Made by a program: the position numbers and the translations under genes
Shown here: positions 50,066 through 53,000 of the stretch, one piece after another
Numbering within the stretch: position 1 is the stretch's first letter
Layout: each line of letters opens with the position of its first letter
Assembly (NCBI GenBank): GCA_044892525.1
Contig: CM097887.1
Location: 44,020,001 to 44,084,000, forward strand
Source: Schmidtea polychroa
Lineage: Eukaryota
DNA: 64,000 bases
Direction of reading: 5' to 3'
The notes under the pieces: model-generated
Database searches by the model: none
Seen by the model: only the letters and a program-made list of their open reading frames with translations
What the model was told of the DNA's origin: nothing

Positions 50066-53000
50066 TTAGTAATGATCCACTGTTAATAAATAGTCGTAAT
50101 TCACTTTTCCAGTTCCACTCGGGAGAATAGTGTCTACTATTTCCGTTATTACCCTTTCCTTTTTCGAGGGGAATAATAAGTTTCTGCGTGCTGCTTCAAT
50201 AGCATCACTTGAATACATTCCACTTTGAGTCATGCTGTCTAGCGATGTAAAGTTAATTAGATATTCTAATTTTGTCAACTCCAATTTTTCTGGGACTTTC
50301 ATCCCTCTATGATCAGGTAGTGCAATCCATGATTCGGGCGTCAGGCGGTATAGTGGAGCCAATAATCTGTTGCACTGCAACACTCTCGGTTTCGCGTCCT
50401 CCTCCAATAAAATTCGTGTCACCGGCTCCATGAATCGTAGCTTCCCATTAACATTCACAGGCAGTTCATTTGTGCATTGATTGTATTTCATCAATTTAAT
50501 AGGCACTGCCTTGCATTTATAACTATATAAGGCTTCACCAAGCATTCGAGCGAATACTCCATTCTCCGAAATCAACATTGGAGCAACTAGATTCGGGTTC
50601 GTGATAGCCATCGCCATTCTGTTTCGCAGGATTTCTTTGTTTAACTTGCAATCATTTAGTATGATTTCCCTGTACACACTTTCAATTGTATCTTGGCTAA
50701 AATGAAATAAATAGTCAATCTTATTATTGAAATAGTTCGTTAGTTTAATTTCCTCTGCGTACAATTTTGTTTGAGCTTCTTCGACAACTTTCTTGGATAA
50801 ATAAATTCCTTTATAATTGGTCTCATAAACAGTTTGTCCACACTTCGTATTTACGCTCTTCCTTAAGAATCTCATCCCATCGTTTGGGGACATTGCCATT
50901 AAAACCGTTGGCGTTTTCTTCAAGCGTATCGGTGTGATTCTAAGTGTCATATTCATGACTGAGTTTAGCACTGTGCTTTCTGGTCTCTCTTGGATCTGCT
51001 CTCCCGTTATCTCTTTAAAAGGCATTGATTTTAAATGTGCTAAATTGCATTTTTTGGTATCAACTTCATATACCAGAATTGACTCACCTGTGTTGCAGCT
51101 TTTCTCCCTCATGTTACAAAATGGATGGGTTTGCAATTTTCCCGTATCGTCATCGAATGATCCATCAAAATACCTTAATTCGGTTTCATATTCTTCTATC
51201 ACTACGGTTTTATCAATGACTGTTTGTCCTACTTTATACGCTTCACCCTCGCAATCGCCATTTGCCTTGATTATCCCCTTAACTGCTATAGTTTCACGAA
51301 TTTTATAGTTTAATTTAGCCTTCAAATTAATTTCTGAATTTATTTTCAGCTCTCCTGTTTGGAACGCTGCCAAACAGTTTTCCCGTGTCACCTCTATTAC
51401 TCTTGGAATTGAGTGCATTTTGATTAATGACGAATGGCTCCATTTGCCACAGTAGAATATAAACGTAGTTCTTTTTGCTGTGCATTCTCTCACTTTCACT
51501 CGTCTAAATCCCGCTTCTTGGTATACGTGGTATGTCACTTCATTTGCCCATTTTAAGTTCCTCGGATATGCGCCTGGACACTCTGCTACATCTACTAGCG
51601 AATATACTTTTCCCATTTCTGTCTGGGAGCAATCGTACGCTACCAAGGACGTTGTGGTATTAATAACTCCTAAAATCACCAAAATAGACATGGTTAGCCA
51701 TGGAAACATTATTTTCCCTCTTTTCGGCTCATAATTTCTTCCAGTTGTCGCAGTCTCCGACTTTTGCACCAAGTTTTCCCATCCTCCATTACGCATAATC
51801 CAACCCGTCACATATGTATTCGCCACTTCGGTGGCTTTTACTATCCATTTTTCCGATTTATCGCATTCCAAGCATCCATATACGCCAATTTCTAGAACAA
51901 TATAAGCAAGGACTGTTAGTACCACGTCTCTGTTCAAACCGTTCCTGATTAATCTCTTGACTACTGTTTCATCGCAAAATACCCTCTCTATGGTATTATC
52001 CTTTAGTACTACTGGAAGGCGACTTTTTAATACCGCTGCAAGCTGATGTATGAGTTCATCGTCACAACTATTTCCTTCTTCCAGTGCATATAATTCTGTT
52101 ACTAACCCTTTCAAAATTGATTCTGTTTGAGACATATTATTCAGATCCGTTTTTTCAACCACATTGGAATCTATTCTATCGTTCTCTTCGTTTCCACCCA
52201 TTAATTCGATTTTACACCGCTTTCGACCATTCAATTTACTTTCCGCTTCTACAAAATTCGACTCACTTTTCACTCTTTCACTCACTAGTAGCTCGTCGGT
52301 TATATGGTTAGTTTCCTGATTTACTGAATCATTTTCGTCCACCTCCTCACTCGTAATTTCGTCTTGCTCGTCATTTATGCCTTCATCTTTTGAGTCATGC
52401 TCTTCTAACTCGTAGTCGTTAGGTTCTTCAGCCAATTCCTTTTTAATTTCCATGTCATCATCCTTCGTATCCTTTGTAATTCTCGGCCAATGGGTTATTA
52501 TACTCTCGGATACCTCCCTCACCTGTTTCTTGGCTTCGATATTATTTATATAATTCGGACTGCACCCACAATTGATTAAGTATTCATCGTCATCTAACTC
52601 AACTCCCTTGAAAGTTAGTATAACAATTCCATCATTACCCAACATTTCCACCGCTTTCCGTCGTACTTTCGACACCTTCATGCTCCAGTGTTCTTGTAAG
52701 TACTCCACTTTCCCATTCATATTTAAGGCTATTACCAATGATCTGGGTATCTCATCTGACTCTCGGTGCTCACGGCCCATTTTTCGTACTATTTCTTTCA
52801 ATTTCGCCTGATAGTTCGTCGTTTTATGAATATACGGTAAAATACTCTCGAATAATTGTTCCTTCGCTTTTTGATCCATCTCCGAACTTATCATCCGTTC
52901 CAGACAATTACTAATTTCGTCTTCATCTCCAATATACAGACTATCCCGTAAATCCTGTAATTTTTCCTCCCATCCTTTAAAGTCTGAATTTGAATGATTA

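Follow-up and report, generated by a model that had tools for sequence, protein, structure and literature searches.

An LTR retrotransposon of the planarian Schmidtea polychroa carries, within a single gag-env-pol frame, a domain that almost certainly adopts the full Bcl-2 fold, judging from its predicted model, and this domain is followed by a hydrophobic segment that is probably the captured signal peptide of the adjoining glycoprotein. The element lies in a 64,000-nucleotide stretch of contig CM097887.1 (positions 44,020,001 to 44,084,000), called the window below. Our reading as a whole is that cutting of the envelope signal in this Burro-type frame would leave the Bcl-2-fold domain on the cytosolic face of the ER, where it might act as a non-canonical pro-survival regulator; we put the chances of this complete chain at about even.

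Architecture of the element

The retrotransposon occupies positions 25532-55923 on the minus strand, as do all of its features described below, and is bounded by LTRs, a GTAC duplication, a primer-binding-like site and a polypurine tract. The 989-bp 5' LTR (54935..55923) is flanked by a GTAC target-site copy at 55924-55927, and the 3' LTR (25532..26520), with GTAC at 25528-25531, shows 3 differences from it in 989 bp. The polypurine tract (26533-26523) adjoins the 3' LTR, and just inside the 5' LTR lies a primer-binding-site-like sequence that starts with TGG (54910..54927) and that we take to resemble tRNA-Trp. A 14-kb nested insertion of two non-LTR retrotransposons (27054..41074, minus strand) is foreign to the host element, which without this block is ~16.4 kb long and colinear with another copy in the same genome. 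The shared GTAC, the polypurine tract and this colinearity ruled out that the LTR at 25532 is a solo LTR. The two nested elements (27054-41074) are arranged in tandem, are 66% alike over 3.3 kb, and each has an in-frame stop directly before a 1,088-codon RT frame, at the same place in both. Short LTR-like pieces built of 17-bp repeats, one of them inverted, are found just beyond the 3' LTR (25110-25216 and 24331-24579), and the regions 58107-59935 (plus strand) and 61882-63353 (minus strand) hold, by their translations only, fragments of a hAT-like transposase and of another gypsy-type integrase.

The coding frame runs from 54748 to 44804 (3,315 codons from the first ATG) and encodes, in this order, gag, a spacer, the Bcl-2-like domain, the hydrophobic segment, the glycoprotein, protease, RT, RNase H and integrase. 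Pfam recovers gag, zinc knuckles, a Monjiviricetes fusion glycoprotein, aspartic protease, RT, RNase H and integrase in the same succession, with the gypsy order PR-RT-RH-IN present within the LTRs; this order and the paired LTRs bear out the retrotransposon context proposed in the first-pass annotation of this DNA. Two in-frame stops interrupt the window's copy, one in the glycoprotein ectodomain (50068-50066) and one just upstream of the RT (48727-48725), so that it is unable to make the whole polyprotein. It is a young but broken copy. Contigs of four runs, none of them recorded as RNA, contain no joint readable as a splice around the Bcl-2-like domain, a result that carries no weight either way.

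The Gag capsid-like region (54188..54748; PF03732, E 1e-7) starts at the first ATG of the frame and is followed by three CCHC zinc knuckles (53729..54016; PF00098 and translation) and a conserved spacer (52517..53626), the second half of which resembles a region of a distant element family, family E. A PDB search with the spacer gave no informative match. The spacer appears to hold two helical-plus-ubiquitin-like units, perhaps akin to TFIIS N-terminal plus ubiquitin-like units, and with a dN/dS of 0.13 it is better conserved than the Bcl-2 domain; the metagenome relative P0002 has a ubiquitin-like match (PF00240, E 0.0046) at the corresponding place. An acidic, fast-evolving linker (52136..52516), a candidate cut region for the protease, lies between the spacer and the Bcl-2 domain. 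Beyond the glycoprotein, Pfam places the aspartic protease (49094..49432), the reverse transcriptase with RNase H (47372..48640) and the integrase (46037..47125). The region between protease and RT (48803..49093) resembles the same region of a giant family, family F (E 1.9e-12); a dUTPase-like motif is placed there in the published description of Burro elements (PMC6431247), from which, rather than from a family match, the label would come. The post-integrase region (44807..45967) is a predicted second single-pass membrane protein with a signal-like segment, five N-glycosylation sequons and a C-terminal membrane segment from 44923, and neither Pfam nor ESM Atlas (best score 0.84) assigned it to a family. 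Its signal is above threshold in families B, C and E and below it in the window's copy; family E shows the same pattern of two hydrophobic segments in a sequence that is not alignable with the window's.

The first-pass annotation had treated the layout as a surprise, which it no longer is: the Burro elements of Schmidtea mediterranea have been described as carrying a BCL2-like motif and, in frame between BCL2 and the protease, an env with matches to mononegavirus fusion proteins (PMC6431247). Burro (GYPSM1) shares with the window's element one polyprotein with gag, three CCHC knuckles, a BCL2-like motif, an in-frame mononegavirus-type env, PR, RT, RH and IN. Burro1 (GYPSM1) proper exceeds 30 kb and has an ORF of about 4,870 aa with MATH, BIR and ankyrin motifs, whereas the window's element, with its ~16.4 kb and 3,315 codons, ends in the predicted second membrane protein, and its three frame pieces have no match to the MATH, BIR and ankyrin Pfam families. 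By sequence comparison it is a Burro-type element, a compact relative of the Burro1-like family F (RT identity 53%), and it may be one of Burro-2, -3 or -4. BURRO1 and BURRO4 are reported to be expressed on piwi knockdown (PMC8532177). PMC12440569 and PMC13238120 contributed nothing on the domain to this analysis. Our literature search turned up no treatment of the Bcl-2 motif in these elements other than PMC6431247, and none at all of the signal/anchor junction; either may be covered in the supplement of Grohme et al. 2018, in Repbase notes or in subscription papers.

A predicted Bcl-2-fold domain in the polyprotein

The domain (51764..52135) comprises ~124 aa with seven predicted helices, and its folded part begins at 52135, about 10 bases beyond the end given by the first-pass annotation. 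It contains a BH1-like stretch, ETVVKRLIRNGLNRDVVLTVLAY (51902..51970), in which NRDV (51934-51923) replaces NWGR, and a BH2-like stretch, GWIMRNGGWENLV (51767..51805), with a GGW that is nearly invariant in 19 rows. The BH1-like, BH2-like and hydrophobic strings and LVAYDC, on which the original proposal was built, are all present in one minus-strand frame.

Used singly, the window's sequence finds Bcl-2 as its best PDB match at a non-significant E of 0.085, with the best 60 of 89 rows all being Bcl-2 or Bcl-xL. Pfam Bcl-2 (PF00452; curated cut-off 31.4 bits) does not match the window's domain, and copies of family E reach about 28-33 bits against it. An alignment of 14 element-borne domains from families A-F of this genome matches Bcl-2 at E 9.8e-4, and of these 14 domains 10, not including the window's, match PF00452 at E<=1, the lowest E being 9.6e-7. 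A 19-row profile, from which P0010 and three near-duplicate own-genome rows were left out and to which three context-less rows may add cellular signal, matches Bcl-xL at E 7.3e-7, and in this match NRDV lines up with NWGR, in agreement with the alteration noted at first. These two profile matches support sequence homology to Bcl-2 over the stretch from BH1 to BH2. Word-index protein searches gave nothing at E<=0.001 among 482 and 438 candidates. A search of 1.84 billion proteins gave 9 matches: P0004, P0005, P0006 and P0008 have the domain, signal and glycoprotein consecutively, P0002 has gag and the domain, P0003, P0007 and P0009 are context-less fragments, and P0010 looks cellular.

The alignment-based model of the domain (pLDDT 82.9, pTM 0.82) is a bundle of seven helices; the single-sequence fold, at pLDDT 40.5, was unusable. 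In a structural search with the model, the best 35 of 50 rows (VIA) are all Bcl-2-fold chains, led by Bcl-xL (Z 12.8, rmsd 2.9, 125 of 130 residues aligned), and the first unrelated row has Z 5.4. The structural tool warns that Z under about 13 is possibly unspecific for helical bundles, a caveat answered by the gap to the unrelated rows and by the agreement with the sequence evidence. Foldseek alone gave no row at E<=0.001, and its ranks agree with the structural search; ESM Atlas (best score 0.79, with BID, BCL2L15 and Bcl-2 clusters) offers a lead only. The helical bundle that the first-pass annotation had called for in a structure prediction was accordingly recovered, and its assignment of a Bcl-2-like domain stands on the profiles, the confident model and the unanimous best rows.

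Viral Bcl-2 proteins are, to our knowledge, so far confined to large DNA viruses. The viral homologues A179L, CNP058, KsBcl-2, BHRF1 and GIV66 and the poxviral A52, N1, B14 and A46 share the same helical bundle (Z 12.4-7.5), and several poxviral members have degenerate BH motifs, as does the window's domain. They are stand-alone genes of dsDNA viruses, whereas the window's domain would be cut from a retroelement polyprotein and has a single membrane segment, apparently glycoprotein-derived. Cellular Bcl-2 and Bcl-xL are the best sequence and fold matches, with BH2 well kept; in contrast to them the window's domain has lost NWGR, has neither a start codon nor a tail of its own, and shows 13-20% identity in structural alignments. 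Capture of a chuvirus-type glycoprotein by an LTR retrotransposon is also described, as an independent event, for the Anakin Pao elements of mosquitoes, which are BEL/Pao rather than gypsy-type and for which the abstract mentions no Bcl-2 domain (PMC7642597).

Related families and the origin of the domain

Relatives are numerous in the 781-Mb genome: all of the 150 candidates scored (of 1,189) match, falling into groups near 100, 83, 63, 58 and 56% identity. A Pfam Bcl-2 search (150 of 909 candidates scored) recovered host-like genes and the distant family E, whereas the giant family F was reached through a BIR search. Even families with RT identities of no more than 51-53% retain the cassette. 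Family F (L097-L108) is Burro1-like: its ~4,800-codon frame with MATH and ankyrin matches precedes accessory frames of TRAF-like and BIR-RING type, and the family can be aligned with the window's element in the domain, the glycoprotein and the RT (RT identity 53%). With its MATH, ankyrin and BIR matches and about 4,800 codons it fits the description of Burro1, and as it carries BIR-RING, TRAF and MATH genes, death-signalling cargo might be a theme among these elements. Its BH1 is even more degenerate than that of the window's domain.

Family D is a ~9-kb derivative with LTRs 97-98% like the window's, which keeps gag, spacer, domain and hydrophobic segment and has lost glycoprotein and pol. These elements (L037, L038, L043, L044, L047, L048, L111-L130) are abundant and non-autonomous, and their 1,300-codon frame includes a trimmed post-integrase region. 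Two further observations concern other Bcl-2-like genes in the genome. Polinton/Maverick-like elements (L091-L095 and L064-L078) carry stand-alone Bcl-2-like genes of their own, one type apparently with an intron, which adjoin frames labelled by their translations as TBP-like, ATPase and DNA-polymerase-like; and seven near-identical host-like, NWGR-bearing Bcl-2 exon copies (L049-L055) lie within 1 Mb on one contig.

A tree of 27 rows places the 19 element-type rows on one side of a branch (95/92), with a host gene, a Polinton-borne gene and P0010 as their nearest neighbours. Because the element profile served to collect the rows and the branches are long, a single old capture of a Bcl-2 domain by these elements is plausible only.

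The hydrophobic junction

The hydrophobic string IMFPWLTMSILVILGVINTTTS (51712-51647) directly precedes LVAYDC, which starts at 51646. Signal peptides have a basic n-region, a hydrophobic h-region and a polar c-region with small residues at -3 and -1. The internal signal peptide and possible membrane anchor predicted here (51647..51724) has each of these, namely KRGK, a core of 17 hydrophobic residues and NTTTS, with the predicted cut after 51647. Then come a Monjiviricetes-type fusion glycoprotein ectodomain (50045..51646; PF24664, E 3.4e-72; stop at 50068-50066) and the glycoprotein membrane segment with its tail (49433..50044, core from 50002; Pfam and hydrophobicity). Among the envelope-bearing rows, the residue at -1, before a start of the form xxYDC or xxFDC, is S, A or G in 10/11 rows and 6/7 lineages, the exception being the relative P0006 with M, and both -3 and -1 fit the signal-peptidase rule in 9/11. 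Between BH2 and the cut site lie 45 to 73 residues, depending on the row. The call rests on hydrophobicity and a table of the -3 and -1 residues. These features agree with the signal-peptidase site first proposed at TTS/LVAYDC, and cleavage after TTS is very probable on this sequence evidence.

The first-pass annotation had further viewed the segment as a Bcl-2 tail anchor doubling as the glycoprotein signal. A dual use may hold, and the direction of the borrowing appears to be the reverse. Position 3 of PF24664 aligns to PWLTMSILV within the hydrophobic segment, that is, the glycoprotein profile starts there, and positions 4-8 align to the corresponding segments of family E and four metagenome proteins. 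All 26 family D copies, which were picked for long frames, have Leu at -1 and no cysteine after YD, a pattern that counts as one event since these copies share ancestry. Taken together, the alignment of the PF24664 start, the small residue at -1 with env and the Leu without env suggest that the segment is probably a captured glycoprotein signal peptide, not a Bcl-2 tail. With the single sequence, the alignment to full-length Bcl-xL likewise continues into the tail, with a non-significant E (0.099).

The orientation of the segment is the same as that of a tail anchor, and after cutting it could therefore hold the domain in the ER membrane. The segment would be taken up by the ER translocon, its N-terminus remaining cytosolic, and be cut by signal peptidase after TTS; the ectodomain would pass into the lumen, and the glycoprotein membrane segment would return pol to the cytosol. 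Hydrophobic segments are located at the signal, at the end of the glycoprotein and beyond the integrase, a placement that fits such an alternation of membrane entry and exit. The cut signal would stay in the membrane, at first tethering the Gag precursor beside the glycoprotein, until the element's protease cut the acidic linker and set free a membrane-held Bcl-2-fold protein. We lean, by a small measure, towards retention of the cut signal as a membrane anchor. Signal peptide remnants are often cleared, and the signal of hepatitis C core is cut further by signal peptide peptidase; the same enzyme could release a soluble Bcl-2-fold protein here and leave no lasting anchor, as the segment's resemblance to an ordinary signal peptide of glycoprotein origin would allow. 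With a 17-residue hydrophobic core and basic residues in front, the segment is long enough to stay, and we consider this outcome quite improbable.

Selective constraint

The domain has a dN/dS of 0.26 (bootstrap 0.15-0.43) between families A and B. The acidic linker, at 0.30 (0.00-0.56), is not separable from it; capsid (0.05), ectodomain (0.03) and RT (0.02) are lower, the domain's value being roughly tenfold that of the last two. Relative to family C, where synonymous sites are saturated, the domain retains 57% identity and the neighbouring linker 29%. The dN/dS of 0.26 and this difference in identity indicate that the domain is constrained, but loosely; in terms of sequence the constraint is only moderate.

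Within family D, the shared variants of the 26 copies comprise 5 non-synonymous to 1 synonymous in the domain (pN/pS 1.25) and 12 to 20 in the capsid, the only part with clear constraint, and D-specific changes have a pN/pS of 0.48 versus 0.17-0.25 on the other two branches. The 22 copies of family A have 2 to 2 shared variants in the domain, too few to judge. The dN/dS comparison proposed at the outset speaks against neutrality between families; within family D there is, on small counts, no sign of selection. We rejected family D, with its 5 to 1, as proof of selection for the Bcl-2 domain on its own.

Loose constraint would fit a product acting for the whole cell that can be borrowed, but also simple decay. 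In the latter case the domain would be a passenger from an old capture, retained for no other reason than that env and pol depend on an open frame, and both its linker-like dN/dS and the state of the envelope-less family are what such a passenger would show. In each of the four family pairs, however, the dN/dS interval stays below 1 (upper bounds 0.42-0.49), and fold and GGW are kept across lineages at about 20% identity, which makes this explanation highly improbable.

The BH3 groove and possible functions

The canonical NWGR, with the Gly and Arg that line the BH3 groove, is absent from the window's domain, which has NRDV in register. The W is lost in 19/19 rows and the G in 18/19, and the fourth position is K or R in 12/12 rows outside the window's clade, those of family E included, and V or M in 7/7 inside it. 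In these sequences the loss of the groove arginine is specific to the window's clade. The change from NWGR to NRDV renders canonical BH3 binding by the domain doubtful, as far as sequence can tell.

A classical viral Bcl-2 mimic would bind host Bak/Bax-like BH3 motifs despite the altered motif and block mitochondrial apoptosis. The host genome has a Bak/Bax-like BH3 exon, and the nine top structural rows (Z 12.8-12.0) place cellular and viral pro-survival proteins equally close to the model. A co-translational signal, on the other hand, implies the ER rather than mitochondria. A complex prediction of the domain with the host Bak/Bax-like BH3 stretch, in which the alignment was not used, scored 0.02 and speaks neither for nor against binding. 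Deerpox DPV022 is described as binding Bak, Bax and Bim without recognisable BH motifs (PMC11209288). The Gly and Arg of NWGR, which are D and V here, are reported to matter for BH3 binding, and ORFV125, with SPGR, to bind Puma about 250-fold more weakly (PMC9027176). Overall, we regard classical mimicry as improbable.

Flaviviruses have an anchored capsid, and the signal-anchor of the element might likewise tether the Gag precursor, with the Bcl-2 fold as a membrane-proximal spacer or scaffold that has no effect on death pathways. Such a purely structural role is consistent with the presence of Gag, domain and signal in one frame, with the degenerate BH1 groove residues, and with the envelope-less family, which keeps gag, domain and hydrophobic segment while the cut-site residue is lost. 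A spacer would need neither the nearly invariant GGW of BH2 nor the basic residue found at the position of the NWGR arginine in 12/12 rows outside the window's clade, and related elements carry IAP- and TRAF-like genes; we hence think it unlikely, if worth weighing.

In the reading that we prefer, the membrane-held Bcl-2-fold protein would act on host death or stress signalling via a changed surface and not via the NWGR salt bridge, which is the weakest step of the proposed series. A host-directed pro-survival role of the domain falls a little short of an even chance. More tentative, and decidedly on the less probable side, is the fuller picture of an enveloped retroelement lineage in which one cut would mature the envelope, tether Gag and plant an ER-resident death regulator with a rewired groove, a working viral-type Bcl-2.

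Implications

The layout as such was known before, and the copy in the window is defective. We offer five additions that we did not find in print: the predicted fold, the probable derivation of the hydrophobic segment from the glycoprotein, the loss of the groove arginine in the window's clade, the derivative without an envelope, and the predicted membrane protein beyond the integrase. The arrangement also suggests a way in which one gag-env-pol frame could be processed, with signal and stop-transfer segments in alternation. An influence of these retroelements on host cell death has been raised as a possibility and called worthy of experiment (PMC6431247). Should the domain prove functional, cell death in a regenerating animal would be shaped by one of its abundant retroelements.
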